Shown piece by piece: positions 35,943-54,681 of a stretch of DNA of 64,000 nt; within the stretch, counting starts at the first letter, position 1, and every line of letters starts with the position of its first letter. The position numbers and the translations under genes were made by a program. The DNA lies in assembly GCA_038202745.1 (NCBI GenBank), contig JBBRER010000003.1, forward strand, positions 676 through 64,675. The letters run 5' to 3'. The DNA comes from Sphingomonadales bacterium. Its GTDB lineage: Bacteria > Pseudomonadota > Alphaproteobacteria > Sphingomonadales > Sphingomonadaceae. Under the pieces are notes generated by a model. That model saw only the letters and a program-made list of their open reading frames with translations. It searched no databases and was not told the origin of the DNA.

Positions 35943-36479
35943 ATGGCGCAGGACAATCCGGCGGGGGGTGAAGCGCGCCCCTTTTCGGTCCACGCGATCC
36001 ATCTCGTCCGCACTTCGCAGCAAATCAACCTGACGCTGAGCCAGATGGCCGACGCCAAGGCCAGCCTGCTGATGGGCGCGACGTTCGTGGTGTTCACGAT
36101 CGCGGTCAGCCAGGCGGCCAAAGGCCCCGAGCCGCTGTCGCTGCTCGTGCTTGCCTCGTCAGCGTTCCTCTCGGCGGTGTGCGCGGTCTCGGCGGTGATG
36201 CCCTCGATCCGCGGCAGACCGGTCCCCGGCGCGGGCAGCAACAAGCTGTTCTTCGGGGTGTTCACGCAAAGGTCCGAGAGCGAGTTCATCGACGGCGTTC
36301 TCGACGAGCTGCACGCCGACGAGACGGTGTTTCGCACGATGCTGCGCGACATCTATCAGAACGGCCAGGTGCTCCAGCGCAAGAAATACCGGTACCTGGG
36401 CTGGGCGTACCGGATTTTCCTCGCCGGGCTGGTGCTGACGGTGCTGACCTTCGTGTGGGAGCACCGCGCCGCGTTTTAG
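35943..36479 (+). CDS. DUF5706 / Pycsar-effector-like two-TM membrane protein (orphan)
   Basis: ATG 35943 is 5 nt after the gdhA stop. The N-terminal helix carries the ADAKAS motif. Two TMs follow (LLMGATFVVFTIAV, LSLLVLASSAFLSAVCAVSAV), then a soluble segment FFGVFTQRSESEFIDG...IYQNGQVLQRKKYRYL and a final TM. The family assignment is from memory of the PycTM/DUF5706 pattern. Confidence 0.45.
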   Translation: MAQDNPAGGEARPFSVHAIHLVRTSQQINLTLSQMADAKASLLMGATFVVFTIAVSQAAKGPEPLSLLVLASSAFLSAVCAVSAVMPSIRGRPVPGAGSNKLFFGVFTQRSESEFIDGVLDELHADETVFRTMLRDIYQNGQVLQRKKYRYLGWAYRIFLAGLVLTVLTFVWEHRAAF

Positions 36480-38487: not shown

Positions 38488-39396
38488 TCAGCGGACCCCG
38501 AGCACCGAGGCTTCTTGACGGAGGCGATCGGCCCGCGCGGGGTTGGCGGCAAGCGCGGCGGCGAGCGCGGCGGAGGCTTTGTCGCTCTGGCCGAGCACTT
38601 GACGGCTGCGCATCAGCATCACCCAGCCGTCGATGTCGCCGGGCTTGGCGCGCAGCTTGGCCTCGAGCTGCGCGACCATGCCTTCGGCCATCCCCCGCTG
38701 CTGGCTGGGCGGAATCGCGGTCGCCCGCGCGAGGTCTTCCGGGCCGGGACCGGGAATCGCGCGCGCGGCAGTGGCCTGGCGGCCCGGAAGCTTGTCGATC
38801 GCGGCAAGGCGCTGGGCGACATCGATCTTGTTGATCTTGCCGACCTGCTCGACCGTCCGGCGCAAGTCGCTTTCCCACGGCGCGCCGGGCGGGGTGTCGC
38901 CGAGCAGCGCCAGCCAATCGTCGATCGCGCCACGGTGGTCGCCACCAAGATCGCGCTTGACCGCGAGGAAGTAGCGCGCGCGCGGGTCCTTGGGGTCGAG
39001 CGCGATCGCATGCGCGAAAGCATCGGCGGCGGGCGCGGGCATCGGATCGCGCGCGCTTCCCATCACCCGCGCCTCGCCCAGCGCCGACCACGCCTGCGCG
39101 CTTTGCGGCTGCGCCAGCGCGGCCTGCTCGAACGCGCGCGCGGCTTCGCCGTAGCGGTTTTCACCGAACTGGCGCTGGCCGAGCGCGAGCCACGCCGCGC
39201 CGTCGTGCGGATCGGCGGCGACGCGCGCTTCGAGCGCCGCGAGACCGTCGCCGGCGGGGTCGGAGGCGGCAGAAGTGGGCGCCAAAGCCGGGCGATGCGC
39301 GATCTTGTACCCGACCGTCGCCATGGCGATCGCCGCCGCCCCGAACAGCGCCAAAGTTGCGGGCCGCCAGGCGCGCGTCGTCTCTTGTAAGGCCAT
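38488..39396 (-). CDS. ccmI: TPR protein resembling c-type cytochrome biogenesis factor CcmI/CycH
   Basis: One N-terminal TM and TPR repeats (AWLALGQRQFGENRYGEAARAFEQA). The C-terminal segment PSQQRGMAEGMVAQLEAKLRAKPGDIDGWVMLMRSRQVLGQSDKA resembles the CcmI C-terminus as I recall it. Start options are ATG 39396, 39411 and 39417. Confidence 0.6.
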   Translation of the reverse strand: MALQETTRAWRPATLALFGAAAIAMATVGYKIAHRPALAPTSAASDPAGDGLAALEARVAADPHDGAAWLALGQRQFGENRYGEAARAFEQAALAQPQSAQAWSALGEARVMGSARDPMPAPAADAFAHAIALDPKDPRARYFLAVKRDLGGDHRGAIDDWLALLGDTPPGAPWESDLRRTVEQVGKINKIDVAQRLAAIDKLPGRQATAARAIPGPGPEDLARATAIPPSQQRGMAEGMVAQLEAKLRAKPGDIDGWVMLMRSRQVLGQSDKASAALAAALAANPARADRLRQEASVLGVR

Positions 39397-39449
39397 GCAA
39401 TTCCGGTCCATAGTCATGCCCGGACGGGGCGGCAAGGAGGGGGATCAGG

Positions 39450-41900
39450 GTGGCGAATCGCGTCCGCGTTGCCATCGTCGGATCGGGGCCGGCCGGGCTC
39501 AGCGCCGCCGCGCATGCCGCGGCGCTGGGAATAAGCCACGTCCTCCTTGAAAAGACCGACCACCTCTCCGACACGATCTACAAGTACCAGAAGGGCAAGC
39601 ACGTGATGGCGACGCCATCGATGCTCGTGCTGCGAGCGGGCGGAAAGCTCGATTTCGAAGCGGGCAAGCGCGAGGTCGTGCTCGGCACTTGGGACGAGCA
39701 GACCGCGGCGCGGCAAGTCAACGTGCGCTACCACTCTGAAGTCCTGAGCATCGAGGGCGAGCAAGGCGCGTTCGCGCTCAAGCTCGGCGACGGGACCGCG
39801 GTGGAGGCCGAAACCGTGGTGCTGGCGATCGGCACGCAAGGCAATCCCAACCTCGTGCGGTGCCCGGTGGGCGAAGGCGCGGTTGTGCAATACCAGCTCG
39901 ACGACCCGGCCGAATACACCGACGAGCACATTTTCGTGATCGGCGGCGGCGACGCGGGGATTGAGAACGCGCTGGGGCTCGCGGCGGACGCGGCGCAGGG
40001 CAACGTCGTCAGCCTCGTCAACCGCTCGGCCGATTTCGCGACCGCCAAGGACGCCAACATCAAGGCCTTGATGGCCGCGCGCGACGCCGGACGGATGACG
40101 ATCCATGTCGAGACCACCTCGTCGCGGATCGACAAGGGCGAAATTGCGCTCGACACCCGCGACGGCGAAACCAAAGTGCGCTGCGACCGGGTGATCGCGC
40201 GAATGGGCTCGGCCCCGCCGCGCAAGTTCGTCGAAGCCGCCGGGGTCGCCTTCGCGAGCGAGGACCGGCTCGCCTTCCCGACGCTCGGCCCGACGTTCGA
40301 ATCGACCAAGCCCGGCATCTACGTGATCGGCGCGCTCGCCGGCTATCCGCTGATCAAGCATTGCATGAACCAGGGTCACGACGCGATCGAGTTCATCAAT
40401 GGAAATACGGCGCTCAAGCCCGCCGACGAGCCGATCCTCGAAGCCAAGTTCGCGCAGCTTCCGGGCAAGCGTTCGGTCGATGAGTGGCTCGAACTGCTGC
40501 GCAGCCAGGTCAGCATCCTCGAAGGGATGAGCCCGCTGCAGATGCGCGAATTCATGCTCGACAGCGAGGCGCGGTTCTATCGCCGCGGCGAAACGATTTT
40601 CCGCAAGAACGACCCTGGCTCTTCGCTGTTCGCCATCGCCAGCGGGAGCGTGCTGGTCCAGATCGATCCAAGCGACGCTTCGATCACCGTCGGAATCGAA
40701 ACCGGATCGATCTTCGGCGAAGTCGGGCTGATCTCGGGCCGGCGGCGCGGGGCGACGATCGTCGCCGCCGAGGACGCGATCTGCGTCGAAGTATCGCGCA
40801 CCGCCGCGCTGCGCCTGCAGTCGCAAGTTCCCGCGGCCAGGCGGGCGATCGACCGGATCGCGATCGAGCGCCAGCTGCTCCAGCTGTTCGGATCGGGGCT
40901 GACCAAGGACGATGTCGCCGAAGTCGTCGAGGCTGCGACGATCGAGTTCAAACGCGCGGGCGAAGTCGTCGTGGCCGAAGGCGACACCGGCGACGACATC
41001 TTCATCATCCGCCGCGGCTCGATGATCGTCGAAAAGCAGATCGGCGGCAAGCCGGTGTTCCTCTCGTACGTTCCGGCGAGCTCGTACTTCGGCGAAATGG
41101 CGCTGATCGACGGCACGGCGCGCACCGCGACGGTCAAGGCGACGATCAAGTCCGAAGTAATCCGCCTGCCGGGGGAGGCGTTCGCCCGCCTGCTGGCGCG
41201 CAAGCCGGCGCTGCTGCGCAAGGCGCAGACCGACATGGCCGCGCGGCGCGACATCAACGCATTCATCGAAGGCCGCAAGGAGAACTTCTCCGGCGCGGTC
41301 GACATGTATTCGGCGACCGCGCAGTTCCTGATCGACAACGGCATCGGCGACGCCACCGACGTGCTGCTGATCGACGAGACGCTGTGCGTCGGGTGCGACA
41401 ACTGCGAAAAGGCCTGCGCCGACAGCCACGAAGGGCTCAGCCGGCTCAACCGCGAAGCCGGGCGCAGCTATGCCCACCTCCACGTCCCCACGAGTTGTCG
41501 CCACTGCGAGCACCCGCACTGCATGGCCGATTGCCCGCCCAACGCGATCAAGCGCGGCCCCGACGGCGAAGTGTTCATCGACGAAACTTGCATCGGCTGC
41601 GGCAACTGCCAGCGCAATTGCCCGTACGGGGTGATCCGGATGGACAGCGTCCCGCCCAAAAAACCCCCGTTGCTCGCGTGGCTGGCGTTCGGCGCGGGAC
41701 CGGGACCGGGTGAGCCTTCGAAGAAATGGCGCAAGAAGCACTCGGATGGCACCGAGCAGGCCAAAAAGGCGATCAAGTGCGACATGTGCGCAGGGATCGA
41801 GGGCGGCCCGGCGTGCGTCCGCGCCTGTCCCACCGGCGCCGCGATCCGCGTCGCGCCCGAGGCGTTCCTGTCGGTCGCGCGGCTGGGTGAGGAAGCCTGA
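39450..41900 (+). CDS. multidomain cytoplasmic oxidoreductase: FAD/NAD(P)-binding domain + two cyclic-nucleotide-binding domains + four-cluster [4Fe-4S] ferredoxin domain
   Basis: AAGGAGGGGGA before GTG 39450. Dinucleotide motifs VAIVGSGPAGLSAA and FVIGGGDAGIE. Two CNB phosphate-binding cassettes, FGEVGLISGRRRGATIVA and FGEMALIDGTARTATVKA. Cys clusters CVGCDNCEKAC, CRHCEHPHCMADCP, CIGCGNCQRNCP and CDMC...CVRACP (DmsB/NrfC-like). No signal peptide. Confidence 0.8.
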   Translation: MANRVRVAIVGSGPAGLSAAAHAAALGISHVLLEKTDHLSDTIYKYQKGKHVMATPSMLVLRAGGKLDFEAGKREVVLGTWDEQTAARQVNVRYHSEVLSIEGEQGAFALKLGDGTAVEAETVVLAIGTQGNPNLVRCPVGEGAVVQYQLDDPAEYTDEHIFVIGGGDAGIENALGLAADAAQGNVVSLVNRSADFATAKDANIKALMAARDAGRMTIHVETTSSRIDKGEIALDTRDGETKVRCDRVIARMGSAPPRKFVEAAGVAFASEDRLAFPTLGPTFESTKPGIYVIGALAGYPLIKHCMNQGHDAIEFINGNTALKPADEPILEAKFAQLPGKRSVDEWLELLRSQVSILEGMSPLQMREFMLDSEARFYRRGETIFRKNDPGSSLFAIASGSVLVQIDPSDASITVGIETGSIFGEVGLISGRRRGATIVAAEDAICVEVSRTAALRLQSQVPAARRAIDRIAIERQLLQLFGSGLTKDDVAEVVEAATIEFKRAGEVVVAEGDTGDDIFIIRRGSMIVEKQIGGKPVFLSYVPASSYFGEMALIDGTARTATVKATIKSEVIRLPGEAFARLLARKPALLRKAQTDMAARRDINAFIEGRKENFSGAVDMYSATAQFLIDNGIGDATDVLLIDETLCVGCDNCEKACADSHEGLSRLNREAGRSYAHLHVPTSCRHCEHPHCMADCPPNAIKRGPDGEVFIDETCIGCGNCQRNCPYGVIRMDSVPPKKPPLLAWLAFGAGPGPGEPSKKWRKKHSDGTEQAKKAIKCDMCAGIEGGPACVRACPTGAAIRVAPEAFLSVARLGEEA

Positions 41901-42763
41901 TGGCGAGCGCTCCGCGCAGTGCGACGCAAGCCGAGCGCCGCGTCACCACCGATCACGAGGGATTCCTGCGCCACGGCGGTTTTGTCTGGCTCAAGGTCGC
42001 TGCGCTGCTCAGCCTCGCCGCGCTGATCGGTTACATCGCCAGCGACGTGAAGCCGCGCCCCAGCGGGCACAGTTGGTACGGCTACACGCTGGGCACGATC
42101 GGCGCCGGACTGATCGTGTGGCTGAGCCTGCTCGGGGTGCGCAAGCGCGCGATGACCCGCGGCGGTTGGTCGCTGAAGTCGTGGACCTCGGCGCACGTCT
42201 ATCTGGGGCTCTCGCTGATCGTCGTGGCCACGCTCCACACGGGCTTCCAGTTCGGGTGGAACGTCCACACCCTCGCTTACGCGCTGATGCTGCTGGTGAT
42301 CGCCTCGGGCACATTCGGGATCGTCGCTTATGCCCTGCTCCCCGCCGCGCTCAGCCGCAACCGCGGCGAGATGACCCAGGCGCAGATGATCGACGGGATC
42401 GCCGCGATCGACCGTCAGCTTCACGATGCCGCGCAGCCGCTGGAGCGCGCCTATGCCGACGCGGTGATCGACGCACTGGGGCAGGACTATTTCGCCGGCG
42501 GGCTGATCGCGCGGTTGACGGGCAGGCAGCGCAATGACGCCACCGCGCGCGCGGTGGCGCTGTTCGATGCGGCGCCGGTCGAACCCGCGATCGCCAAAGT
42601 CGAAGCGCTGCTGCGGCGGCGCAAGGCGCAGCTCGACCGGATGCGCCGGCACTTGCGCCTCAAGGCGATGCTCGAAGTGTGGCTTTATGTGCACGTGCCC
42701 GCGACGATCGCGCTGATCGCGGCGCTGGTCGCGCACATCGTCGCCGTGTTCTTCTACTGGTAG
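41900..42763 (+). CDS. five-TM membrane protein with conserved intramembrane histidines (possible b-haem binding)
   Basis: The ATG overlaps the upstream TGA by 1 nt. TMs include SAHVYLGLSLIVVATLHTGF, VHTLAYALMLLVIASG and LYVHVPATIALIAALVAHIV. I recognise no family. Confidence 0.6.
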   Translation: MASAPRSATQAERRVTTDHEGFLRHGGFVWLKVAALLSLAALIGYIASDVKPRPSGHSWYGYTLGTIGAGLIVWLSLLGVRKRAMTRGGWSLKSWTSAHVYLGLSLIVVATLHTGFQFGWNVHTLAYALMLLVIASGTFGIVAYALLPAALSRNRGEMTQAQMIDGIAAIDRQLHDAAQPLERAYADAVIDALGQDYFAGGLIARLTGRQRNDATARAVALFDAAPVEPAIAKVEALLRRRKAQLDRMRRHLRLKAMLEVWLYVHVPATIALIAALVAHIVAVFFYW

Positions 42764-42770
42764 GCGCGGC

Positions 42771-44537
42771 GTGAGCTTTCGCATCCGCACGATCGACACG
42801 CTCGCCGACGGCCGCGAGATCGTTCGCGACCGGACGATCGACAAGATGCTGCTGACGCTCGGCCGCAATGCCGAGAACGACATCCACCTGCCCGATCTCG
42901 CGGTCGATCCCGCGCACGCCACGCTGACGCGGCGCGCCGACGGGCGGATCGACGTCGCGGCGATCGAGAACCTGCGCTTCGAGGTCGATGGGCAGACTGT
43001 CACCGCCACGACGATCGACCCGGCAGTCGGGGTCGAGCTGCGCTTCGGCGGGTATCGCATCCGCGTCGGCGCGGAGGACGGCGCGCCGCTGCTGACGATC
43101 ATGCCGACCGAGACGTTCGGGCAGGCCCAGGGCGCCGATCCCAAGACCAGTTTTACGTTGAAGCGTGCGCTGCCGTCCAAGCGCGTCATGTCGTGGCTGT
43201 TTGCCGCGCTGGTGCTGGGGTTCTTCCTCGGCTGGCCGGTGGCGAGCAACTACCTCCATTCGCGCGATGCGAGGATGGCGGTCCGGGGCGACAAAAGCTG
43301 GACGCCCGGCCCTTTGAGCGCGGCGCATCACGCGCTCGAAGGCGACTGCAAGGCCTGTCACGTCAAGCCGTTCGTAGCGGTGCGCGACGCCAGCTGCCTG
43401 TCGTGCCACAAGGACGTCCACGATCACGCCCCGCCCGCCCAGATGGCGATGGCGCGCGGCATGGGCGGGCTGAGCGAGCGGCTGCTCGGCAGCGTCGCGC
43501 GACTGTTCCACAAACCCGCCGCGGGCGCCTGCGTCGATTGCCACACCGAGCACCAGGGCGCGGGCGCGATGCCGCCGACCCGGCAGAAGTTCTGCGCCGA
43601 TTGCCACGGCGATCTCAAGGGACGGGTAACCGGCGCGAAAATCGGCAACGCGGGCGATTTCGGCTCGCTCCATCCGCAGTTCACCGCGCGGGTAACGACT
43701 GATCCGTTCGCCAGGCAGACCGCGGTGGTCTCGCTCGACGCGCACCCGCAGGATCGCGACGGGCTGACGTTCCCGCACGATGTCCACCTCGCCGCGGCGG
43801 GGGGGGTCGCGCGGATGGCGATCAGCCTCGGCGCGGGGCGCGGCTACGGCGCAGCGCTGACGTGTGCGAACTGCCACCACGCGACCGAGGACGGCGTGCG
43901 CTTCAAGCCGGTGAACATGGAGCGCGATTGCCAGGCCTGCCACAGCCTCGGCTACGACCGCGTCGGCGGCACCGTGCGCACCCTGCGCCACGGCGATATC
44001 GACCAGATGATCGCCGATCTGCGCGCGTCGAACCACGCCGTCGCACCGCTCGCCGCGCCCCGGCGGCGGCCCGGGGCGTTCGGTGCCGAGGGTCCGTATT
44101 ACGCCACCTTCCGCGTCCCCGGCGCAGGGATCGATTCGGTCGCAGGCGCGCTATCTCCCGGCGGCGTCTGCGGCGAATGCCACACTGCGCGCTTCGACGG
44201 GGCCAAGCCCGGGGTCGTGCCGGTGACCCAGCCCGCGCGCTACATGGCGCACGGCTGGTTCGATCACCGCGCCCACGCGCAGGAACCATGCGCGAGCTGC
44301 CACACCGCCAAGTCCTCGCACGTCGCGACCGATCTGCTCCTGCCGGGGATCAAGACCTGCCGCGGCTGTCACCTCGGCGAAGACGCGCACGACGCAAAAG
44401 TCCCGTCGGGCTGCGCGATGTGCCACACCTATCATCCGACCCCGCTCGCCCCGCGCCCTGCTTCCGGCCGCCCGCGCGAGGTTGCGTTTGCCCGTTTTGG
44501 GTCCGGCCCCGCCCGCGCTTTCTGGGTGGGCCGCTAA
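42771..44537 (+). CDS. FHA domain - TM - decahaem c-type cytochrome fusion
   Basis: N-terminal FHA-like segment (LTLGRNAENDIHLPDLAVDPAHATLTRRADGRIDV...FEVDG), the TM MSWLFAALVLGFFLGWPV, then ten CXXCH sites: CKACH, CLSCH, CVDCH, CADCH, CANCH, CQACH, CGECH, CASCH, CRGCH, CAMCH. Confidence 0.8.
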   Translation: MSFRIRTIDTLADGREIVRDRTIDKMLLTLGRNAENDIHLPDLAVDPAHATLTRRADGRIDVAAIENLRFEVDGQTVTATTIDPAVGVELRFGGYRIRVGAEDGAPLLTIMPTETFGQAQGADPKTSFTLKRALPSKRVMSWLFAALVLGFFLGWPVASNYLHSRDARMAVRGDKSWTPGPLSAAHHALEGDCKACHVKPFVAVRDASCLSCHKDVHDHAPPAQMAMARGMGGLSERLLGSVARLFHKPAAGACVDCHTEHQGAGAMPPTRQKFCADCHGDLKGRVTGAKIGNAGDFGSLHPQFTARVTTDPFARQTAVVSLDAHPQDRDGLTFPHDVHLAAAGGVARMAISLGAGRGYGAALTCANCHHATEDGVRFKPVNMERDCQACHSLGYDRVGGTVRTLRHGDIDQMIADLRASNHAVAPLAAPRRRPGAFGAEGPYYATFRVPGAGIDSVAGALSPGGVCGECHTARFDGAKPGVVPVTQPARYMAHGWFDHRAHAQEPCASCHTAKSSHVATDLLLPGIKTCRGCHLGEDAHDAKVPSGCAMCHTYHPTPLAPRPASGRPREVAFARFGSGPARAFWVGR

Positions 44538-44538
44538 C

Positions 44539-45387
44539 ATGCTGATCGCGCAGATCACCGACATCCACATCGGCTTCGATCCGGGCAGTGCGGACGAGTT
44601 CAACATGCAGCGGCTGCGCAGCGTGATCGCGCGGTTGCTCGACGGCCCCAACCGTCCCGATCTGCTGCTGATGAGCGGCGATCTCACCGAATTCGGCGAT
44701 GCAGAGAGTTACGCGCGGCTCTCCGAAGCGGTGGCGGGGCTGCCGTTCCCGGTGCTGGCGATGACCGGCAACCACGATCTTCGCGAGCCGCTGCTCGCCG
44801 CGTTCCCAAAGACGCCGAACGAAGGCGGGTTCGTCCATTACGTCGTCGATTTCCCCGAGCTGCGGCTGGTGGTGCTCGACACGCTCGAAGAGGGGCGCCA
44901 CGGCGGCGCGTTCTGCGAGGCGCGCGCGGCGTGGCTGCGCGCGACGCTCGACGCCGCGCCGGCGCGCCCGACCGTGATCGCGATGCATCACCCGCCGTTT
45001 GAATCCGGGCTCGCCTGGCTCGACGGCAGCGCTGCCGAGCCGTGGATGCGTCGTTTTGCCGAGGCGACCTCGGGCCGCGCGCAGATCAAGGGAATCGTCG
45101 CCGGGCATCTCCACCGCACGATCCACACCGCGTGGAATGGCTTCTCAGTGACGGTGTGCAAATCGACCGCGCCGCTGGTCGCGCTCGACCTCACCCCGAT
45201 CGACGCCGACGTTCCCGATGGCCGCGCGCTGATCACCGACGAGCTCCCCGGCTACGCGCTCCACCGCTGGGACGGAACGCGGCTGATCACGCACTTCGAA
45301 AGCGTCGGAGAAATGCGCGTGCTCGCGCGCTTCGACGAAGGGCTGCTCGATACGGTGCAGATGATCGACCGCGAGCGGCCGAAGTAG
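44539..45387 (+). CDS. class III cyclic-nucleotide phosphodiesterase-like metallophosphoesterase (CpdA-like)
   Basis: ATG 1 nt after the upstream TAA. Calcineurin-fold motifs DIHIG, SGDLTE, TGNHD, AMHHPP and AGHLHR are in canonical order. Confidence 0.75.
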   Translation: MLIAQITDIHIGFDPGSADEFNMQRLRSVIARLLDGPNRPDLLLMSGDLTEFGDAESYARLSEAVAGLPFPVLAMTGNHDLREPLLAAFPKTPNEGGFVHYVVDFPELRLVVLDTLEEGRHGGAFCEARAAWLRATLDAAPARPTVIAMHHPPFESGLAWLDGSAAEPWMRRFAEATSGRAQIKGIVAGHLHRTIHTAWNGFSVTVCKSTAPLVALDLTPIDADVPDGRALITDELPGYALHRWDGTRLITHFESVGEMRVLARFDEGLLDTVQMIDRERPK

Positions 45388-45410
45388 GCTCGCGCCCAGG
45401 AACAAGTCCC

Positions 45411-45501
45411 GTCATCCTGAACTTGTTTCAGGATCCATCGCTCCCCCTGGTCCGAAGCCGCGTGGTGAGAGATGGACCCTGAAACGAGTTCAGGGTGACG
45501 A
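45411..45501. repeat. MITE/REP-like inverted repeat at the convergence point of the two operons
   Basis: CGTCATCCTGAACTTGTTTCAGGATCC (45411-45437) against the reverse complement of 45475-45501 (CGTCACCCTGAACTCGTTTCAGGGTCC) matches 24/27. Each arm contains its own CCTGAA/TTCAGG hairpin. Confidence 0.7.
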
Positions 45502-45521
45502 GGGAGGTTGCGCTGGCGTGG

Positions 45522-48500
45522 CTATTTCGCCCGCCACGCCCCCATGTCCACCTCGTCGCTGACCTTGAACGGGAAGCCCCGTTTGGTCATGAACAGCGCT
45601 TCCATCTCGGGGCGAGTGAACGGGCGCGAGCCCAGGCGGCCGAAGACTGCGATCTGGCCGCCGGTCTCGTCGACCGCGCGGTCGCGGTCGATGCCTTTGG
45701 ACAACGCCAGTGCGCGCGACGGGGTCTTGGCCCAGGCGATCAGCTCGGGCTTGGGCGCGGGGCTGTAGCCGTAGAAATTGGGCTGGCTGGCGGGCGAGGT
45801 CAGCTGGATCACCTTGAGCCCGTTGCGCCCGTCCGCCACGTAAGCGAACGCGCTGGCGTTGGTCGATCCGACGATCACGTCCTGCGCGTCGTTCATCTGC
45901 CCGCCGAACGTCTCGCGCAAATAGACCGTGGGCGCGCGCGGGCGCGTGACGTTGACGATCACCAGCCCGTCCGCGCCCGCCGCGACGTAAGCATACGTCC
46001 GTGCGAGATAGACCCGGCGCGCGTCGGCGAGCGGCACCGCGCCTTCGGGCACCGGTTGCGGATGCCTGAGATCGGTGACGTCGAACAGCTTGAGCCCGCC
46101 GCTATCGGTCACCCACAAGTAGCGGAACTGGACCGCGCTCGCGCGCGCGCCGGTAAGCGGCTGGACCGAAGCGAGCTTGGGATGGAGCGGATCGTGCAGG
46201 TCGACCGTCACCAGCCCGGCGTCGGCGGCGATGTAGGCGATCTCGCCCGCGAGCACGATGTGCCGCGCGCCATTGAGCACGCCGTTTTCGTTCCACGTCA
46301 CCGCGCGCTTGAGATGGTTGTTGGCGAAATCGCCGTCGGCGAGCGTTTCGATATTGACGAGGATCAGCCCCTCGGTCGCATCGGTTACCGCGGCGTAGCT
46401 GTAGATCGGCAGGAACGCCTGCTCCTGGTTGATCTGACGCATGATCTTGGTGTTGCGCAGCGGGTTGATCGGCTGCCCGGTCGGCAGCGCCATGCAGGTC
46501 GCATCGGTGGTGCCGACGTGGGTGTCCTGGCCCAGCGGCGAGAACGGCGCCGAGACGATCGGCTGCGATACGCCCTTGTTGGCGATTGAGGCGACATCGT
46601 AAACGCGGAAGCCGCCTTTCCCTTCGGCGACGTAAAGGTATTCGCCGCGCAATTGCAGGCATCGGGCCGCATCGCTGGTGCCGTGGGTGACGTTGCGGAA
46701 TTCCTCGGCCGGATCGGTTTCGCCCGATAGCCCCGACGACAGCGTCTTGCCGCGGACCCAGTTCTTGAGCTCGCGATGGTTCTGATCGACGTGGAGCTTG
46801 TAGTAATCGGGGTAGGCGTATTCCTGCAGGTACGACCCGATCACCGCTTGCGGTTCGCTCCATTCCGTCACGCGCACCGCCTCGATACCGCCCGCGAGGC
46901 CGGTCCACGCGTTGAGCCCGACGAAGTTGACGTAGTTCGAACCGAGCAACAGCGTCTGCGCCAGAATCGCGTTGTTGTCCTCGTCCCTGGACAAGTGGCA
47001 ATCGCTGCAGGTCTTCGTCTCCTCGGTCCGCACGGTGTGCGGGAAATGCGGCGCGAACGCCTGGCTCGAGAACCCGATCGCGCTAACCGGCGGCTGCTGG
47101 ATGTAAATCCGCTCGCGGTTGAGATTGGTCGAGGACAGCACCAGCGCGCTGGTCGATCGGACGGGGGCGACCTCCGCGCCCTTGGTGGTCATGTGCTTGC
47201 CCAGCTGGAACATGTCGTCGCGCGCGACTTGCGGGTTGTAGCTCGCGAAATTGCGCGTTTCCTCGCCCTCGTAACGATGCGAAGTGGTTCGCCAGTTGGC
47301 TTCGATCGGCAAGTGGCAGCCGCCGCAGCTCGTCGTCCAGCTGAGGTGGCAGGTGTAGCACGCGATCTTGGTGATATCGTGCGCGCGGTCGGACAGCTTG
47401 ATCCCCGGGCCGAACGCGAAACTGCCGTCCTGCGCGCCCGACTTGCTCATCAGTTTGGCCCGCGCCGCCTTGGCGTTGAAATAAGGCGAGGCCGGATCGA
47501 CGCTGTCCTTGACCAGGTGAATTTGCCATTCGAGCTTCGGATCGACGAGCGAGCGCTGCGTCAGCGTCCGCCGCCCGGCGTTGTCGAAGCCCCATTCGAA
47601 GCGTCGCTTGCCGTCGGGGTTGCGCAGCAGCGACAAGTCGTTGCCCTTGGGCGGCGCGGCCGGGCCCGAGGTCAGCAGCGTCGGGTAGGCGTCGGGAGTG
47701 CCGTGGCAATCCTTGCACCCGATCTCGATGGCGTTGGCGACCTCGCCGTAGATCAGCCCGTTGCCGTGGCTGTCCTGCGCAAAGTGGCAATCGGCGCACT
47801 GCAGGCCCTTTTCAGCGTGGATGTCCATCAGGTGGACCGCCTTGCCGGGGTTGACGCCGGGGGGCACGAACTTGCCCTCGCCCGCCTTGCGCCATTTCTC
47901 GGGGTCATCGGGGCTGACGATATGCGCGGTATCGGTCCCCCAGGTGGCCATGTTGCCGCCTTCGTCGAGCAGGTTGCCGGCGCGGTCGCGCTTGAACACC
48001 CCGCGGAAGTTCCAGCCGTGGCCGTGATAGTCGGCGAACTGGGTGTCCTTGAGCGTCGGGTTTAGATCGTAGACGTCGCGCAGGAAATCGAGATCGCCCC
48101 ACAGCCCGCGCGGGCTCGCGCCTTCGGGATTGCGATCCTCGATGTCGCGGACTTCGTGCGCGGTCGGATAGGCCTGCTGCTTGGGCCACATGCTCGGCGC
48201 GTCTGATTCGTAGTCCCACATCGTGTAGCCGAGGTAGCTGTTCAGGAAGATGTTGGGCTGGTGCATGTGGCAGTTCATGCACTGCGCGGTGGGGATCGCG
48301 CGGGTGAAGACGTGCTGGAGCGGGTGGCCCTTTTCCTTGACCGGCGGACCTTCGCGCCCGTCCACCAAAGCGCCGTGCTGCATCGCCCCGGCGATCGTCG
48401 GATCGGCGGTGATCGACTGCCCGTCGCGCCCGTATTGCGCGTAAGTCAGGCTGTCCCGCGGCTCGCGGTCGTTGGCGTAGATCACGTGGCACCCGGTGCA

Positions 48501-49511
48501 GCCCGAACTGCGATAATCGCCGGGCTGGTCGTTGGTCCCCATGAACCACATGTAGGGATCGTTGAGCCGGGTCTTGTGCATGTTGAGCAGCGGGATCGCA
48601 ACGCGCAGCCCGGTGCCGGGGCCGCGGTTCGACTGCTTGAGATCGGGCCGGCCCGGCTCCTCGAGCCGCTGGATCTGGCCCGAAAGATTGGGCAGGCCGA
48701 TTTCGGCAAACGTCGAATTGATCGTCCGCCCGCCGCGCTCGAACACGCGGAACACGTCGCCCGGCGGGGTCACCTGCCAGGTCGGCAGCGGATAGAGCTC
48801 GGCGAGCGCGCCGCGCGCTTCCTGCCGGGCGGTGAGCTTGCCCGGCGGATTGCCCGGCGAGACGACTTTAGCGGGCTTGCCGTCACGCGTGTAGGCCTCG
48901 CCGAAAATGTAGTTTTTGAACGGGACGATGCCGTTGTTGTACGCCGCCCCCCCCATGAACATCGCGCCCGAGGCCATCAGCGAGCGTTCGGCGGCTTCGA
49001 CGGTGGCAAGGTGGCAGGCGCCGCACGATTCGCGCGCGATGCGGTAGTCGCCCGGGTTGACGAAGCGCACGAACTCGGGCGCCTCGCGGTTGAGCAGGGT
49101 GTAGCCGCGCTCGGGGTTGGCGGCGCTGGGGTAGTGCCAGGCGGCCGGGTAGCGCGGCAGGACGTGGGCCTTTTCCATCGCGGCGACGTTGAACGGATCG
49201 GTGTAGCCGAGTTCGGGCCGGCCCCGCGCCGCAGGGGAGGCCGCATCGCCGCCGTGGCAATCGGTGCAACCTAAATGAACCGCCTCGCTCACGTGCATCG
49301 TGGCGGCGTCCGAGGCGGTGTGGCACGAGATGCATCCCGCCGATTTGGCCCCGGCTTGGGCGAACGTCTGGTTGCGCGGTGCATCGGGCGCGGTAACGTA
49401 AGCGCGCGCGACCGGCTTTTCCTCCTCGCTTGCGCGTCCCGCTGCGAGCGGCAGGATCGCCGCCGCTACCAGCACCATCAGCCAGCGCAGCAAAGGCCGC
49501 CGCCCGCGCAT
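45522..49511 (-). CDS. 1329-aa secreted decahaem c-type cytochrome fused to C-terminal LVIVD-type beta-propeller repeats
   Basis: ATG 49511 (TGATG junction with the upstream gene). Signal peptide MRGRRPLLRWLMVLVAAAILPLAAG. Ten CXXCH sites: CISCH, CTDCH, CGACH, CTGCH, CMNCH, CADCH, CKDCH, CYTCH, CGGCH, CSDCH. The C-terminal roughly 450 aa carry repeats GFRVYDV, GLILVNI, GLVTVDL, GLKLFDV, GLVIVNV and GLKVIQL. Confidence 0.8.
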   Translation of the reverse strand: MRGRRPLLRWLMVLVAAAILPLAAGRASEEEKPVARAYVTAPDAPRNQTFAQAGAKSAGCISCHTASDAATMHVSEAVHLGCTDCHGGDAASPAARGRPELGYTDPFNVAAMEKAHVLPRYPAAWHYPSAANPERGYTLLNREAPEFVRFVNPGDYRIARESCGACHLATVEAAERSLMASGAMFMGGAAYNNGIVPFKNYIFGEAYTRDGKPAKVVSPGNPPGKLTARQEARGALAELYPLPTWQVTPPGDVFRVFERGGRTINSTFAEIGLPNLSGQIQRLEEPGRPDLKQSNRGPGTGLRVAIPLLNMHKTRLNDPYMWFMGTNDQPGDYRSSGCTGCHVIYANDREPRDSLTYAQYGRDGQSITADPTIAGAMQHGALVDGREGPPVKEKGHPLQHVFTRAIPTAQCMNCHMHQPNIFLNSYLGYTMWDYESDAPSMWPKQQAYPTAHEVRDIEDRNPEGASPRGLWGDLDFLRDVYDLNPTLKDTQFADYHGHGWNFRGVFKRDRAGNLLDEGGNMATWGTDTAHIVSPDDPEKWRKAGEGKFVPPGVNPGKAVHLMDIHAEKGLQCADCHFAQDSHGNGLIYGEVANAIEIGCKDCHGTPDAYPTLLTSGPAAPPKGNDLSLLRNPDGKRRFEWGFDNAGRRTLTQRSLVDPKLEWQIHLVKDSVDPASPYFNAKAARAKLMSKSGAQDGSFAFGPGIKLSDRAHDITKIACYTCHLSWTTSCGGCHLPIEANWRTTSHRYEGEETRNFASYNPQVARDDMFQLGKHMTTKGAEVAPVRSTSALVLSSTNLNRERIYIQQPPVSAIGFSSQAFAPHFPHTVRTEETKTCSDCHLSRDEDNNAILAQTLLLGSNYVNFVGLNAWTGLAGGIEAVRVTEWSEPQAVIGSYLQEYAYPDYYKLHVDQNHRELKNWVRGKTLSSGLSGETDPAEEFRNVTHGTSDAARCLQLRGEYLYVAEGKGGFRVYDVASIANKGVSQPIVSAPFSPLGQDTHVGTTDATCMALPTGQPINPLRNTKIMRQINQEQAFLPIYSYAAVTDATEGLILVNIETLADGDFANNHLKRAVTWNENGVLNGARHIVLAGEIAYIAADAGLVTVDLHDPLHPKLASVQPLTGARASAVQFRYLWVTDSGGLKLFDVTDLRHPQPVPEGAVPLADARRVYLARTYAYVAAGADGLVIVNVTRPRAPTVYLRETFGGQMNDAQDVIVGSTNASAFAYVADGRNGLKVIQLTSPASQPNFYGYSPAPKPELIAWAKTPSRALALSKGIDRDRAVDETGGQIAVFGRLGSRPFTRPEMEALFMTKRGFPFKVSDEVDMGAWRAK

Positions 49512-51406
49512 CAGTAGGCGACCGTCAGGTTGGCGAGGATCGAGACGTACGCCCGGTCGCGCGGCTGGTTGGTGAACAAGTCCTTGAACCCCGCCCCCGG
49601 CAGCAGCGCCGCCGCCGACAGCCGCGCGACGATGTTCTGCGTCGCGCGCGGACGCCAGATCGCCGAAGTCGATAGGTCCCACCCGATCGATTTGGGGATC
49701 GAACCTTCATTGCGCAGCGTCTGGAGCACGATCGTATCGTCGAACCACAAGTGGTTGGCGTTGGCCGAGACGCGCAACTGCGGCGTGAGGTCGAAATCGC
49801 CGCCCGCGCCGATAAGCACCGTGCCCGGATTGTTGAAGTTCGACTGCCCTTGTTCCTTCGACGAACGCAGAGAATTGAGCACGCCGTTGCGCCCATTGAT
49901 CGAAATCACCCGGCCGCCGCCCGCGAATGGGATCGTCTGTCTGATCCAGTAACTCGTGTCCGCGCCCGCGAAGACCGGGTTTTCGAACACCGCGTCGAAC
50001 CCGCCTTCGGTGTTGTCGTACGGATCGGAATCGCCGGTCGCGTAAAGCCCCGACAGCCGAAAGCGCATCCAGTCCTTGTCGTACGACAGTTCCGCCGCGG
50101 CGAACCCCGCGCGCACTTTGGCCTTGCGCCCGGTGAAGAAGCTGTTCCGGTCGCTGCCGAACGCGCCGTAAACCGATCCGGTCAGGTTGAGCCGCCCGAT
50201 GTGTCCGTCGGTGTTGTAGCCGACGTAAAACACGTCGTAATCGCGCCCGCGCAGCGTGCCGAGCAGCGCCGGGCGCACCGGAAAACCGTTGTCGTCGATC
50301 TCGATCTCGTTGCCCTCGCGGTTGCGGTTGTAAACGAGCGTAACCTGCCCGGTCAGCCCCGGGCGAAGAAAATCCTGGCGATAGGCGTTGGCGATGAACA
50401 CCCAGTCGTCACGCGGGCGTACGGTCAAGTTGTTGAGCCCGCTATTGGTGTCCTTCTCGAGCCGCCAGAACGCAGCGAGATTGTATTGAAAGCGGTTATT
50501 GTCGCGATTGCCGAACAGCCGCACGCCGAGCTGTTCGTCGTTGAACAGGAACCCCCGGAAATCGGCTTGAAACGGCTGGATTCCGATGCGCAGCGAATCG
50601 AAATCGTAGCGGTCGGAGACGTTGCGCAAATGGCGGTCGACGAACAGTTCCTGCACGCCGAGGAAATCGTCGGTGCGGCTCGTGCCCTTGCTCGGTTGGA
50701 CGAACAGCACGCGCCGCTCGGGCACGCGGACATGGTTGACGTTGAACGCCAGCGTCACCTTGTATTCGATCTCGGGCGGCTTGAACGCGGTGCTGCCCTT
50801 GAGCAGCGAGGCGCTGGCGATCACCGTCTGCGACAGCACGTAGCTAGCGTCCTTGCCGAACACGTCGATGCTGTGCGGGCGCTGCGTGGTCTGCACCCCC
50901 ACGGGAATCGGGAACGTACGCGGCTCGATTACCGTATCGCTGACGAGGCCGAGGTTGAGGAACCAGTCATCGCCGTGAAGGAATCCCGGACGCTTGCCCT
51001 CGGGGAGCGGAATGTCGCCCTTGAGCACGTTCTGGTGATAGGGATCGCGGCGCGAATGGCAGACCTCGCGCATCGCCTTGAACACATCGAACAGCGACTG
51101 GTCTGCGCCTTTGGGACACAGCCCGGTGAGGATGCGCCAGCGATCGGGAACGGGGAACGCCTGATCGACGGGGAACGCTTCGGGGGGCGGAGCGCGCACC
51201 GCGCCTTCGTTTGTCTGGCGGGCCTTGTCGGGAAGATTGGGATTGTAGCCGGGCTTGCGCCGCCCCTCGATCACGCCGGAATCGACGTCGGGCGGCGTGG
51301 TCTCGTCCGCGTCGGGCGTCGCGGTGGCGACCGGCTCGGGCGGCGGCGCGGCGGGCGGCGGCTCGGCGCCGAGCATCAGCAGCATCAAGGCCAGCCCCGC
51401 GATCAC
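49511..51406 (-). CDS. large outer-membrane beta-barrel protein (porin-like), family unknown
   Basis: Alternating amphipathic strands run throughout and the C-terminus is aromatic (LANLTVAY). The N-terminus is (M)IAGLALMLLMLGA followed by a Pro-rich linker. The start is uncertain (GTG 51406, ATG 51385 or 51376). The stop forms a TGATG junction with the decahaem gene. Confidence 0.65.
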   Translation of the reverse strand: MIAGLALMLLMLGAEPPPAAPPPEPVATATPDADETTPPDVDSGVIEGRRKPGYNPNLPDKARQTNEGAVRAPPPEAFPVDQAFPVPDRWRILTGLCPKGADQSLFDVFKAMREVCHSRRDPYHQNVLKGDIPLPEGKRPGFLHGDDWFLNLGLVSDTVIEPRTFPIPVGVQTTQRPHSIDVFGKDASYVLSQTVIASASLLKGSTAFKPPEIEYKVTLAFNVNHVRVPERRVLFVQPSKGTSRTDDFLGVQELFVDRHLRNVSDRYDFDSLRIGIQPFQADFRGFLFNDEQLGVRLFGNRDNNRFQYNLAAFWRLEKDTNSGLNNLTVRPRDDWVFIANAYRQDFLRPGLTGQVTLVYNRNREGNEIEIDDNGFPVRPALLGTLRGRDYDVFYVGYNTDGHIGRLNLTGSVYGAFGSDRNSFFTGRKAKVRAGFAAAELSYDKDWMRFRLSGLYATGDSDPYDNTEGGFDAVFENPVFAGADTSYWIRQTIPFAGGGRVISINGRNGVLNSLRSSKEQGQSNFNNPGTVLIGAGGDFDLTPQLRVSANANHLWFDDTIVLQTLRNEGSIPKSIGWDLSTSAIWRPRATQNIVARLSAAALLPGAGFKDLFTNQPRDRAYVSILANLTVAY

Positions 51407-51407
51407 C

Positions 51408-53336
51408 CTACAAACCCTGGCAGACGTTTTGCTGGCTTGTGTCGAGGAACGGCGCGAACGGACAGTTGATGAAGCGCAGCCGCACTCCGCCCGCGCCAAA
51501 CGGCACCACCACGGTGTCCGAGCGGATCGCGAGCGGAGCGTTGCCGAACCCGCCGAGCGCCGCCCCGGCGTTGTTCAGCCCGAGGAAGCCGATCATGTCG
51601 TCCTGATCGATCCCGTCGCCCGAGACGCCGATCCCGCCGATCAGCGTGCTCCCGCGGTAGATCGGCACCGAGCCGGGGAATATCTGGATGCCGTTGGCCA
51701 CCCGAGCCTGCGCAGAACAGCGCCGCGGCGCATCGCTCGCGCTCGCGCCGGTGCTGAACTGCAGCCCCTGGACGATATTGCCCGCGATCAGCGCGGACTG
51801 CAGCCCGGTCGAGAACGGGTTGAACTGCGTGATCGGGCGCGACAGCGGACCGTTGGGCGTATTGAGCTGCCCATCGGGAAAGTAGGGCCGTGAGAGGTTG
51901 CCGCCCGCGCGGTCGGAAAACGCGATTTTGCCGGTGAGCGCGCTCGGATCGGCGAGGAACGTGCGCAGTGCGGGCACGAAATGGCGCACATCGGCGCTGG
52001 GATCGGCGGACAGCTCGGCGCCCGCGTTAGGGTGCGAAAAGAACGCCGCAGTACGCGCCTTCTGGAGCGAGACGTCGGTGCCGAAGATCGGCGCGTCGGG
52101 CGCGCGGACGATGCCGAGGATCTGGCCGCGCGTATCGACCACCGAGATCGACACTTGCGCGCGGCTGTCGAGCGGCTGACGGATTTGCCCTCGCGCCCGG
52201 GTCATGATCGTGAACGCCTGGACCAGCGTTTCGCGCACTTCGGCTGCGCTGAGCGGCTGCGCGATATCGCCCGCGTCGGTGCCCGCGCGAACCGGAAAGC
52301 GGTTGTTGCCCGCGCCGTCGGACAGCACGAACGCGTCGGGGTTGGGGAACTCGGCGGCGCGCGAGGGGCGGATACCAGAGGTTTCGGTGCCGTAAGCGGT
52401 CCCGGCGATCACCGCGCCGCCGGGATAATAGCCACGATACGGGACCAGCGCGCCGAGCGCGGGGACAGTCGCGGCAAAGCTCGCGCCCGCGAGCGAGGTC
52501 AGCGCCGGGTAGTCTACATCGGAGAAACGCAGCTGGGTACCGTCGACATAAACCCGGTCGGCGCGGATCGCGGTCGGTGCTTCGAAGCCGACGGTCCCGG
52601 CGAGCGCAATTTTCTCGTCGCGGTCGGAATCGATGTCGAGCACGTCGGGATCGAAAGCGTACTGCCCGTCGGCCAGAACCCCGACCCCGCCGACGAGCAC
52701 GCCGTTCTTGTAGAGCGGGAACCCGCCGGGATCGGCGGCGAGCCCGAGCGGCGAGCGCTGCGGCCCCATCGGGCCGTCGGCGGCGCGGGTCGAAAGGTCA
52801 GAGCACGGCAGCTGACTGAACTGGACCCCGAACAACGGCCCGCTTTCGAGCCCCGGGGTCGAGGCCGCGGGGGGAAAGTGCTGCTGGACGATCTGGCTCG
52901 CGGTGCGCGAGGAGAACGCGTTGCCCGCGCTCGACAGGTAAGCCCCGGTGATCGCCTTGGCGATCGCGGCGGCCTCGGCGGGGACCACCGCGCCCTGGAT
53001 GTCCAGATCGGCGCCGCCCGGCGCGTGAGACACCAGCGCGGTCGCGGGCGCGCCGGTCATTTTGAGCACCGCGAGCACATTGCCGACCCGGTCGGTCACC
53101 GCGATTACTGCGGGCGCGCTGTCGGCGCGCGCCTGCGCGGCGGCTTCGGCGAGGACTTTCTGGACGTCGATCACGCTCAACGATTCGGCGGCGGGGACCG
53201 CCAAGACGCCGCCCACGGGTGGCGGCGTTGGCGTCGGCGTCGTGCCTCCGGTCGCGCCGCCCCCGCTTGTTCCGCCGCCCCCGCACGCGACGAGCGCGAA
53301 GCACGCCAGCGCGGCTATCCCCCGCCTGCCCCGCAT
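51408..53336 (-). CDS. lipoprotein with two GlcG/HbpS-like (DUF336, haem-binding/degrading-like) domains
   Basis: Lipobox FALVAC followed by a Gly/Thr/Pro linker. Domain 1 reads AVIAVTDRVGNVLAV...AAAIAKAITGAY. Domain 2 reads SISVVDTRGQILGIV...SLQKARTAAFF...IGGIGVSGDGIDQDD. Confidence 0.65.
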   Translation of the reverse strand: MRGRRGIAALACFALVACGGGGTSGGGATGGTTPTPTPPPVGGVLAVPAAESLSVIDVQKVLAEAAAQARADSAPAVIAVTDRVGNVLAVLKMTGAPATALVSHAPGGADLDIQGAVVPAEAAAIAKAITGAYLSSAGNAFSSRTASQIVQQHFPPAASTPGLESGPLFGVQFSQLPCSDLSTRAADGPMGPQRSPLGLAADPGGFPLYKNGVLVGGVGVLADGQYAFDPDVLDIDSDRDEKIALAGTVGFEAPTAIRADRVYVDGTQLRFSDVDYPALTSLAGASFAATVPALGALVPYRGYYPGGAVIAGTAYGTETSGIRPSRAAEFPNPDAFVLSDGAGNNRFPVRAGTDAGDIAQPLSAAEVRETLVQAFTIMTRARGQIRQPLDSRAQVSISVVDTRGQILGIVRAPDAPIFGTDVSLQKARTAAFFSHPNAGAELSADPSADVRHFVPALRTFLADPSALTGKIAFSDRAGGNLSRPYFPDGQLNTPNGPLSRPITQFNPFSTGLQSALIAGNIVQGLQFSTGASASDAPRRCSAQARVANGIQIFPGSVPIYRGSTLIGGIGVSGDGIDQDDMIGFLGLNNAGAALGGFGNAPLAIRSDTVVVPFGAGGVRLRFINCPFAPFLDTSQQNVCQGL

Positions 53337-54679: not shown

Positions 54680-54681
54680 CG

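Follow-up and report, generated by a model that had tools for sequence, protein, structure and literature searches.

A sphingomonad form of a recently noticed, uncharacterised and probable electron conduit of the cell envelope, with a fused flavin/Fe-S protein and an added phosphodiesterase

A full-text literature search returned only two preprints on modules of the kind described here, neither of which characterises their function. The first reports the ptdABCDEFG operon of marine bacteria, whose function its authors call completely unknown, and which encodes a pentahaem cytochrome (PtdA), a porin (PtdB), an FAD/NAD(P) oxidoreductase (PtdC), a tetrahaem cytochrome (PtdD), an Fe-S protein that binds cyclic nucleotides (cNMP; PtdE), a 'ferric reductase-like' membrane protein (PtdF) and a decahaem cytochrome (PtdG) (bioRxiv 10.1101/2023.11.21.568154). 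The second describes the 'NHC' cluster of Ferrigenium straubiae, in which an FHA-anchored nonahaem cytochrome is encoded beside a protein with five transmembrane (TM) helices and a [4Fe-4S] protein, and states that FHA domains had not been reported with multihaem cytochromes before (bioRxiv 10.64898/2026.01.22.701106). Here we analyse eight genes, g1 to g4 and d1 to d4, in a 64,000 nt stretch of Sphingomonadales contig JBBRER010000003.1 (the window; approximately 68% GC over 64 kb), the proteins of which have their nearest relatives in Sphingomonas, Sphingobium and Novosphingobium. The cluster is the sphingomonad form, with a fused g1 and an added phosphodiesterase (g4), of this recently noticed, uncharacterised and probable envelope electron conduit. 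An earlier note, made from the sequence alone, knew of no characterised system with this architecture; the system is indeed uncharacterised, but it has not gone unnoticed, as the module in the two preprints looks to be the same one.

Matched by description only, g1 resembles a fusion of PtdC and PtdE, g2 resembles PtdF, g3 PtdG, d4 PtdA and possibly d2 PtdB. In two of ten loci from distant lineages (L083 and L088, see below) g1 is split into an FAD gene and a gene for the cyclic-nucleotide-binding (CNB) and Fe-S parts, resembling the separate PtdC and PtdE. In the window, by contrast, the PtdC and PtdE equivalents form one polypeptide with four Fe-S clusters instead of two, no counterpart of the tetrahaem PtdD was present in the window cluster or in the ten distant loci, and the preprint makes no mention of an FHA domain, an LVIVD decahaem protein, an HbpS-like lipoprotein or a phosphodiesterase. 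The equation of d4 with PtdA was not confirmed; a PDB sequence search with d4 returned no chain at E <= 0.01, including the Thermochromatium c552 that the preprint cites for PtdA. The likeness to NHC, likewise by description only, is that a protein with a cytoplasmic FHA domain, a single TM helix and multiple haems on the periplasmic side is encoded beside a 5-TM protein and a 4Fe-4S protein, which is the logic of g3-g2-g1. NHC differs in having nine haems where g3 has ten and in its neighbours, nirK and an SHP-like gene instead of d1-d4; moreover, its authors recognised no redox motif in the 5-TM protein, and the role they proposed was to carry electrons inward from Fe(II) to quinone.

For the locus studied here, outward electron export driven by NAD(P)H is the best-supported mechanism, judged from cofactor order, topology and synteny. 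The proteins g1, g2 and g3 would form an inner-membrane module that takes electrons from NAD(P)H and feeds the haem proteins of the envelope, a reading to which we assign a probability of roughly 0.55. All predicted cofactor ligands are invariant in homologues down to about 28-40% identity.

Gene packing and the conserved unit

The four plus-strand genes g1-g4 (Table 1) are real genes. Their frames have a third-position GC of 0.82-0.89, typical of genuine genes in the window, and a Shine-Dalgarno-like AAGGAGG lies upstream of the GTG start of g1. Read directly from the sequence, the g1/g2 junction is TGATG (1-nt overlap), g2 and g3 are separated by TAG, 7 nt and a GTG start, and g3 and g4 by TAA, 1 nt and an ATG start. 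The packing given in the earlier note (four plus-strand genes with a 1-nt overlap and gaps of 7 and 1 nt) was therefore exact. In other genomes the genes are spaced about as closely, consistent with translational coupling. A consensus scan of positions 38900-46000 for promoters and terminators was uninformative. Pfam returned every family that the note had expected: Pyr_redox, two cNMP_binding, Fer4, FHA, multihaem cytochrome c and Metallophos.

Synteny was compared in 81 Sphingomonadales loci (a search for related loci with an 11-sequence alignment gave 80, all from Sphingomonadales). Distant lineages were covered by a profile search and inspection of ten contigs, from Oceanibacterium, Sneathiellales, Methylobacter, Ferrovibrio, Xanthomonadales, unclassified Gammaproteobacteria and others; one of the ten is a metagenome-assembled genome labelled Vulcanimicrobiota, which is possibly mis-binned. 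The order in Sphingomonadales is a ccmH-like gene on the minus strand, g1 g2 g3 g4 on the plus strand and d1 d2 d3 d4 on the minus strand, and it holds in every locus whose contig extends far enough. Among the 81 loci g1 was present in 73, g2 and g4 each in 80, d1 in 59, d2 in 49, d3 in 44 and d4 in 30. The genes g1, g2 and g3 are adjacent in all 81 where the contig reaches, and in 10/10 distant loci. Nine of these ten run on, on the same strand, into homologues of d3, d2 and d1 (often also d4); homologues of all four d genes are present in four of the distant loci and of at least two in nine. In the window d1-d4 are convergent to g1-g4 and span positions 45522-54706. The gene g4 lies directly 3' of g3 in 80/81 Sphingomonadales loci and in 0/10 loci of other lineages.

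This synteny of g1-g3 with the d genes across lineages indicates that the evolutionary unit is a cluster of seven genes, g1-g3 and d1-d4, and that g4 and the ccmH-like gene are additions confined to Sphingomonadales. The earlier note had taken g1-g4 as the unit. The neighbourhood of g1, g2 and g3 is indeed conserved in both samples, but g4 is not linked to it outside Sphingomonadales, and the convergent d1-d4 belong to the core instead. The note had furthermore seen a complete cytoplasm-to-periplasm electron chain. The cofactor chain is coherent and its predicted ligands are invariant, but because d1-d4 are co-inherited it most likely extends beyond the periplasm, probably to a complex in the outer membrane or at the cell surface.

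Predicted cofactors of g1, g2 and g3

In g1, Pfam placed Pyr_redox_2/3 at aa 6-309, two cNMP_binding domains (PF00027, 116 bits across the two) and Fer4/4Fe-4S dicluster families at aa 640-800. In the PDB the N-terminus matched YpdA/TrxR-like ferredoxin-NAD(P)+ reductase (FNR) by sequence and the middle matched PKA-R/PKG. The best match of the Fe-S module was HycB, a formate hydrogenlyase subunit (E = 1.5e-21); the module reached no NCBIfam equivalog cut-off. All CxxC motifs lie within the Fe-S module, from aa 646 onward. A thioredoxin or disulfide reductase was ruled out by the lack of CxxC in the flavin domain, which places this domain with the TrxR-like ferredoxin-NAD(P)+ reductase/YpdA kind. 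Motif and TM scans of g1 found no signal peptide, Tat motif or TM segment, so the protein is expected to be cytoplasmic, and a motif scan of the open reading frame (ORF) found no haem motif. Both phosphate-binding cassettes, judged by the pattern Gly-Glu ... Arg-x-Ala-Thr/Ser, are intact in the window protein, FGEVGLISGRRRGAT in CNB-A and FGEMALIDGTARTAT in CNB-B. In an alignment of the window protein with seven homologues (eight sequences, 41-77% identity), the following were invariant in 8/8: the two GxGxxG motifs, the 16 Cys that make up the four ferredoxin motifs and, in CNB-A, the cassette FGExGLISGRRR[GT]AT with R431. The g1 family comprises more than 5,600 clusters at 90% identity, carrying generic names only.

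The second protein, g2, consists of five hydrophobic helices. Histidines H99 and H113 are located on TM3 and H265 and H279 on TM5, 14 residues apart on each helix; together with H123 they are invariant in an alignment of nine sequences (35-62% identity) and in a set of 50. Four conserved His on two TM helices with a spacing of about 13-14 residues is the pattern of the dihaem cytochrome b superfamily (PF01292, Ferric_reduct, DUF4405). The positive-inside rule suggests an N-in/C-out topology in which TM3 and TM5 both run from inside to outside, which brings the His pairs in register for two stacked bis-His haems; g2 is thus predicted to hold two transmembrane-stacked b haems. A helical, cytoplasmic insert of 107 aa separates TM4 from TM5, and a conserved GFQFGWNVHT loop lies at the periplasmic end of TM3/TM4. 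The AlphaFold2 (AF2) model is all-helical (pLDDT 81), and a PDB sequence search with g2 returned nothing relevant. Among 50 relatives, PF01292 (Ni_hydr_CYTB) matched 42 at E <= 0.05, DUF4405 seven and Ferric_reduct six; the Ferric_reduct matches of g2 and some relatives are weak. The family counts approximately 8,000 clusters at 90% identity. A second Ni_hydr_CYTB protein of the window (cytochrome b561-type, 383 aa, 67 bits; 17302-18453, plus strand) appears to be unrelated to the cluster.

These features of g2 bear on a different mechanism, in which g2 would react with quinone, as the cytochromes b FdnI, HyaC and NarI do, and g1-g2 would be a regulated NAD(P)H:quinone reductase. Instead of this, or besides it, g2-g3 would serve as a quinol:cytochrome c dehydrogenase, so that the compartments are linked through the quinone pool. 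We regard this as unlikely, notwithstanding that PF01292, the sole Pfam family reached by g2, is one whose characterised members normally carry a quinone site. The two in-register His pairs span the membrane, which a simple NAD(P)H:quinone reductase would not need, and the four-cluster wire, the dihaem b and the periplasmic multihaem protein suffice for direct transfer; the tight coupling of the three genes is, moreover, kept everywhere. The quinone-coupled mechanism would, on the other hand, give a place to the invariant H123 and the GFQFGWNVHT loop, neither of which has an assigned role, and the Ferrigenium preprint (10.64898/2026.01.22.701106) proposes a quinone link for its similar-looking cytochrome.

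Pfam detected cytochrome c7/c3 families in g3 and, when the N-terminus was scanned alone, FHA (21.7 bits). In the AF2 model aa 1-112 form a beta-sandwich (pLDDT ~95) with the eleven strands of the FHA fold, and the top 50 PDB matches in Foldseek were all FHA domains at probability 1.0 (OdhI/GarA, KIF13, Rv1747 and others). The single signal-anchor TM helix puts the haems in the periplasm and the FHA domain in the cytoplasm. Across 40 representatives (25-51% identity) neither the ten CXXCH sites nor a set of distal His vary, and homologues with ten CXXCH were present in 81/81 Sphingomonadales loci. Matches to other haem proteins were weak: by sequence, one c7-type match in the PDB (Geobacter GSU1996), and in NCBIfam TmcA and HmcA, both below cut-off. 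The family is large, with 463 clusters at 50% identity (E < 1e-30) and relatives in at least 508 GTDB species.

With respect to phosphothreonine binding, the 40-sequence alignment shows that the GR motif is kept in 39-40/40 and His49 in 35/40. Where SxxH has its Ser, most sequences carry Ala, Glu, Leu or Pro and the window protein carries Asp; the SxNG loop is missing from the g3 family in this alignment. Two of the three canonical binding residues (Ser and Asn) are therefore not conserved while the Arg of GR is kept, which makes the FHA fold more likely a docking or regulatory module, not necessarily phospho-dependent, than a classical phosphothreonine reader. Long relatives of g3 were searched for fusions, and P0260 alone was informative. 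This protein, the representative of a cluster at 50% identity, has the order PilZ-FHA-TM-multihaem (Pfam PilZ, 49 bits); as PilZ is a c-di-GMP receptor, the fusion suggests that the cytoplasmic face of the g3 family is a hub for second-messenger input. Two other long relatives were rejected, P0135 carrying an unrelated N-terminal replacement and P0175 looking like a frameshifted call.

The descriptions of these three proteins in the earlier note were largely borne out. For g1 (no signal peptide, an FAD domain, two intact CNB cassettes and a four-cluster ferredoxin) Pfam and motif scans agree with it. For g2 the five TM helices and the intramembrane histidines stood, but the count of four to five becomes five, and these are invariant throughout the 50 homologues. 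The FHA fold, the single TM helix and the ten CXXCH sites of g3 were found as described, with the qualification that the canonical phosphothreonine-binding Ser and Asn are not conserved.

Table 1. Genes of the cluster and predicted domains of their products. Gene positions refer to the window; aa positions refer to the protein.
Feature	Position	Strand	Description
g1	39450..41900	+	816 aa, FAD/NAD(P)H + two CNB + four-cluster ferredoxin, cytoplasmic
g1 FAD/NAD(P)H domain	aa 1-320		TrxR-like; GSGPAG 11-16, GGGDAG 165-170; no CxxC
g1 CNB-A	aa 422-436		phosphate-binding cassette
g1 CNB-B	aa 547-561		phosphate-binding cassette
g1 four-[4Fe-4S] module	aa 646-656, 683-695, 714-724, 777-793		HycB/DmsB-type; positions are those of the Cys motifs
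g2	41900..42763	+	287 aa, 5-TM, probable dihaem cytochrome b
g3	42771..44537	+	588 aa, FHA fold + one TM + periplasmic decahaem c domain
g3 FHA-fold domain	aa 1-112		cytoplasmic
g3 signal-anchor TM helix	aa ~135-165
g3 decahaem domain	aa 193, 209, 254, 275, 365, 387, 467, 507, 530, 548		periplasmic; positions are those of CXXCH
g4	44539..45387	+	282 aa, class III (Metallophos) phosphodiesterase
d1	45522..49511 (ORF to 49682)	-	~1330 aa from signal-sequence Met, decahaem + C-terminal LVIVD beta-propeller
d2	49511..51499	-	~630-660 aa, no Pfam family, probable outer-membrane beta-barrel
d3	51408..53336	-	642 aa, lipoprotein, lipobox LVAC, three HbpS-like/DUF336 domains (Pfam)
d4	53336..54706	-	456 aa, secreted pentahaem cytochrome, Pfam Cytochrome_C554
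ccmH-like gene	38488..39435	-	stand-alone CcmH/CycH-type TPR protein, TPR_CcmH_CycH 57 bits, divergent from g1

Envelope proteins, electron route and cyclic-nucleotide gating

The best-conserved protein of the cluster is d1, with 53-60% identity in distant loci where g3 has just 28-32%. A motif scan found ten CXXCH sites, which are present in 50/50 homologues, and Pfam found LVIVD; the PDB sequence search gave no match and NCBIfam a local match only, to the ExtM model. This protein may form the catalytic end of the pathway. A signal-like N-terminus, alternating hydrophobic strands and a C-terminal ...LTVAY suggest that d2, for which Pfam gave no match, is probably an outer-membrane beta-barrel; homologues were found in 9/10 distant loci, always adjoining d1-type genes, and 6/8 had 46-54% identity by tblastn. 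The lipoprotein d3 is conserved within the same cluster of distant taxa. In d4 the haem sites comprise four CXXCH and one CX4CH (CAGSTCH, aa 47), a 4+1 pattern that recurs in 13/16 full-length homologues; its identity is 32-38% in four distant loci, and c554-type genes were called in 6/10. At the preferred start codons, d4/d3 and d2/d1 overlap by one base, the start of d1 being a predicted one.

In the export mechanism proposed here, NAD(P)H would reduce the FAD of g1, whose flavin domain has the fold of TrxR-like ferredoxin-NAD(P)+ reductases but no redox-active disulfide. The HycB-like wire fused into the same polypeptide would then relay the electrons through its four [4Fe-4S] clusters, after which they would cross the membrane via the two stacked b haems of g2, with H99/H265 as predicted ligands of the cytoplasmic-side haem and H113/H279 of the periplasmic-side haem. 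They would next enter the ten c haems of the membrane-anchored g3 and be handed on to the pentahaem d4, the lipoprotein d3, the putative barrel d2 and the decahaem/propeller protein d1, with a final acceptor at or beyond the outer membrane. The domains, the invariant ligands, the FHA fold and the synteny are observed, whereas it is inferred that the proteins form a complex, which way electrons flow, that flow is gated, which ligand does so and what the terminal acceptor is. Reduction of c haems by NAD(P)H (~ -320 mV) is downhill, and the inside-negative membrane potential favours outward electron movement.

The same energetics weigh against a route in the reverse direction, from an external or periplasmic donor via d1, d4, g3 and g2 to NAD(P)+ at g1, as would serve lithotrophy. 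With c haems or Fe(II) as donor, the reduction of NAD(P)+ (~ -320 mV) is steeply uphill and would also proceed against the membrane potential, the cluster has no energy-coupling subunit, and its hosts are mostly organoheterotrophs (Sphingomonas, Novosphingobium, Sphingobium). Inward uptake is thus highly improbable, even though the cofactor chain is reversible in principle and Ferrigenium straubiae, which oxidises Fe(II), expresses a similar FHA-cytochrome cluster that has been discussed as an inward wire.

Cyclic-nucleotide gating of g1 is plausible. Situated between the FAD and Fe-S modules, the two CNB domains would modulate the entry of electrons; this site is a natural place for a conformational switch that would move the donor and acceptor cofactors together or apart. 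The case for gating rests on the invariant CNB-A cassette, the linkage of g4 together with a cyclase gene next to one member of the cluster, and the PilZ-FHA relative of g3. The cyclase gene (CHASE2 + guanylate/adenylate cyclase; L087, 21256-21653) directly follows the cluster of an unclassified gammaproteobacterium and is the only cyclase seen beside any member.

In Sphingomonadales, g4 might reset the cyclic-nucleotide signal. All five class III phosphodiesterase motifs (D8xH10, GD48, GNHD77-80, H150 and GHLH189-192) could be read directly in the protein, as the earlier note had claimed, and Pfam assigned it to Metallophos. These metal-binding motifs are shared with Rv0805, CpdA and SpdA; Rv0805 was the top PDB match, with GpdQ also among the best. 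In NCBIfam, g4 scored 140 bits against the SpdA model (cut-off 400) and 79 bits against CpdA (cut-off 225), so far below both equivalog cut-offs that it is placed in a separate subfamily. SpdA is a 2',3'-cNMP phosphodiesterase (PMC4222275). The substrate of g4 and its tie to the CNB domains are uncertain because it is absent from the cluster outside Sphingomonadales, lies closer to SpdA and reaches neither cut-off.

The unusual density of signalling domains (FHA, two CNB and a phosphodiesterase, with a PilZ fusion and a neighbouring CHASE2-cyclase among relatives) could also be read as a redox-signalling device, in which the g3 haems sense the redox state of the envelope and FHA, CNB and phosphodiesterase form a second-messenger circuit. 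This is very unlikely. The conserved core has no output domain (kinase, DNA-binding or cyclase), a sensor would hardly need 25 c haems, two b haems, four Fe-S clusters and a flavin, and the best-conserved part, a 1300-aa decahaem/propeller protein, fits catalysis or transfer better.

Several observations count against gated, NAD(P)H-driven export. On the side of gating, the CNB-B cassette is degenerate in 2/8 aligned sequences, both distant homologues; no cyclase was found among the window genes scanned, which comprised part of the ORFs; and g4 has the restricted distribution and the affinity to SpdA described above. On the side of the membrane step, the PF01292 score of g2 is marginal (30.4 bits against a gathering score of 30.1), and Foldseek of the g2 model against the PDB gave a best E of 0.68 and no cytochrome b, in a search that often misses helical bundles. 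As there is no structural match in the PDB, the assignment of g2 as a dihaem b is drawn from the His pattern and the weak Pfam matches. The quinone sites of PF01292 and the unexplained H123 leave some weight with a quinone-coupled mechanism. Finally, the hosts are mostly aerobic heterotrophs, and it is not evident why these should need to export electrons from the cell. We therefore keep separate, and hold as tentative, the fuller proposal of a second-messenger-gated export that bypasses the quinone pool and comprises CNB-coupled flavin/Fe-S halves, a new dihaem b, 25 c haems and a barrel/propeller complex.

To our knowledge, all characterised routes by which respiratory electrons leave Gram-negative cells begin at the quinone pool (CymA, ImcH, CbcL and similar). 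If the export reading is correct, a module that starts from NAD(P)H would open a new way into extracellular electron transfer at the inner membrane, built from a flavin/Fe-S fusion enzyme, a dihaem b of its own and a membrane-anchored decahaem cytochrome. The CNB domains between flavin and Fe-S wire would then make g1 one of the rare electron-transfer enzymes on which a second messenger acts directly. Ordinary aerobic bacteria of soil and water (Sphingomonas, Novosphingobium, Methylobacter, Xanthomonadales) would gain regulated reduction at the surface or outside the cell, with metals, humics and O2 (giving superoxide) as candidate substrates. The family is large and occurs mostly in aerobic heterotrophs that are not considered electroactive, so its function could be relevant to extracellular redox processes in soil and water that lack an explanation. 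As two recent preprints have flagged these genes as 'completely unknown', a model that can be tested is timely.

Among the flanking genes, the ccmH-like gene occupies its position in 58/81 Sphingomonadales loci, that is, wherever the contig reaches, and was not seen in the ten distant loci. Its product may be a dedicated cytochrome c maturation factor, for instance for the CX4CH site of d4. A gene for a TonB-dependent receptor (36476-38400, minus strand) was ruled out as a member of the system; it is absent from this place in all 81 related loci and thus looks like a local insertion between the ccmH-like gene and that of a PycTM (Pycsar effector transmembrane) protein. The latter protein (206 aa; 35859-36479, plus strand) has no nucleotide-binding domain, and its gene adjoins that of an NADP-type glutamate dehydrogenase (gdh; 34582-35937, plus strand). 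The PycTM gene and gdh are found upstream of the ccmH-like gene in 21-23 of the 81 loci, and gdh lies immediately 5' of g1 in the gammaproteobacterial locus L087.

In the gap of 134 nt that separates the convergent stops of g4 and d1 lies an inverted repeat of 37 nt, whose arms (45410-45446 and 45464-45500) are 86% complementary and each contain a perfect 8-bp hairpin. It could be a bidirectional terminator or an element resembling repetitive extragenic palindromes (REP). On the far side of d4, a run of plus-strand ORFs (55145-59311) has high third-position GC, unusually high second-position GC (0.62-0.68) and no Pfam family. It adjoins a gene for a ShlB/FhaC-type two-partner-secretion transporter (60987-62759, minus strand) and is overlapped by a minus-strand ORF of 2821 aa (54682-63147) that is probably spurious.

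Comparison with known electron-transfer systems

Membership of the Mtr, Hmc/Tmc, Nrf, Dms and Ext complexes was ruled out, as no NCBIfam cut-off was approached; the genes thus do not belong to a respiratory complex already known under these models. The resemblance to MtrCAB and PioAB is functional only and does not extend to homology: the Mtrc-MtrF domain gave a sub-threshold match to d1 (16.5 against a cut-off of 30) and a marginal one to g3 (30.2).

A closer parallel is offered by NADPH oxidases (NOX), ferric reductases and MsrQ, in which electrons pass from a pyridine nucleotide to a flavin, then to two stacked bis-His b haems held by two helices, and on to an acceptor at the outer face. 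The predicted arrangement of the window cluster follows this order, with four differences. The flavin domain of g1 has a TrxR-like fold in place of the FNR-like dehydrogenase of NOX; it resides on a separate polypeptide that is joined via four Fe-S clusters; g2 has five TM helices instead of six; and the acceptor would be a decahaem cytochrome instead of O2, Fe(III) or MsrP.

Tmc and Hmc of sulfate reducers, like the cluster, combine a periplasmic multihaem cytochrome c, a membrane cytochrome b and a cytoplasmic Fe-S protein, and NarH-NarI likewise places a cytoplasmic four-cluster ferredoxin on a 5-TM dihaem b. In contrast to these systems, the window cluster lacks a CCG-domain or NrfD-type subunit and reaches none of the NCBIfam cut-offs, has a flavin/NAD(P)H entry and signalling domains, and its predicted electron flow is opposite. 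By analogy, then, the cluster would work like the NOX/MsrQ and Tmc/Hmc/NarH-NarI arrangements while being a member of none of them.

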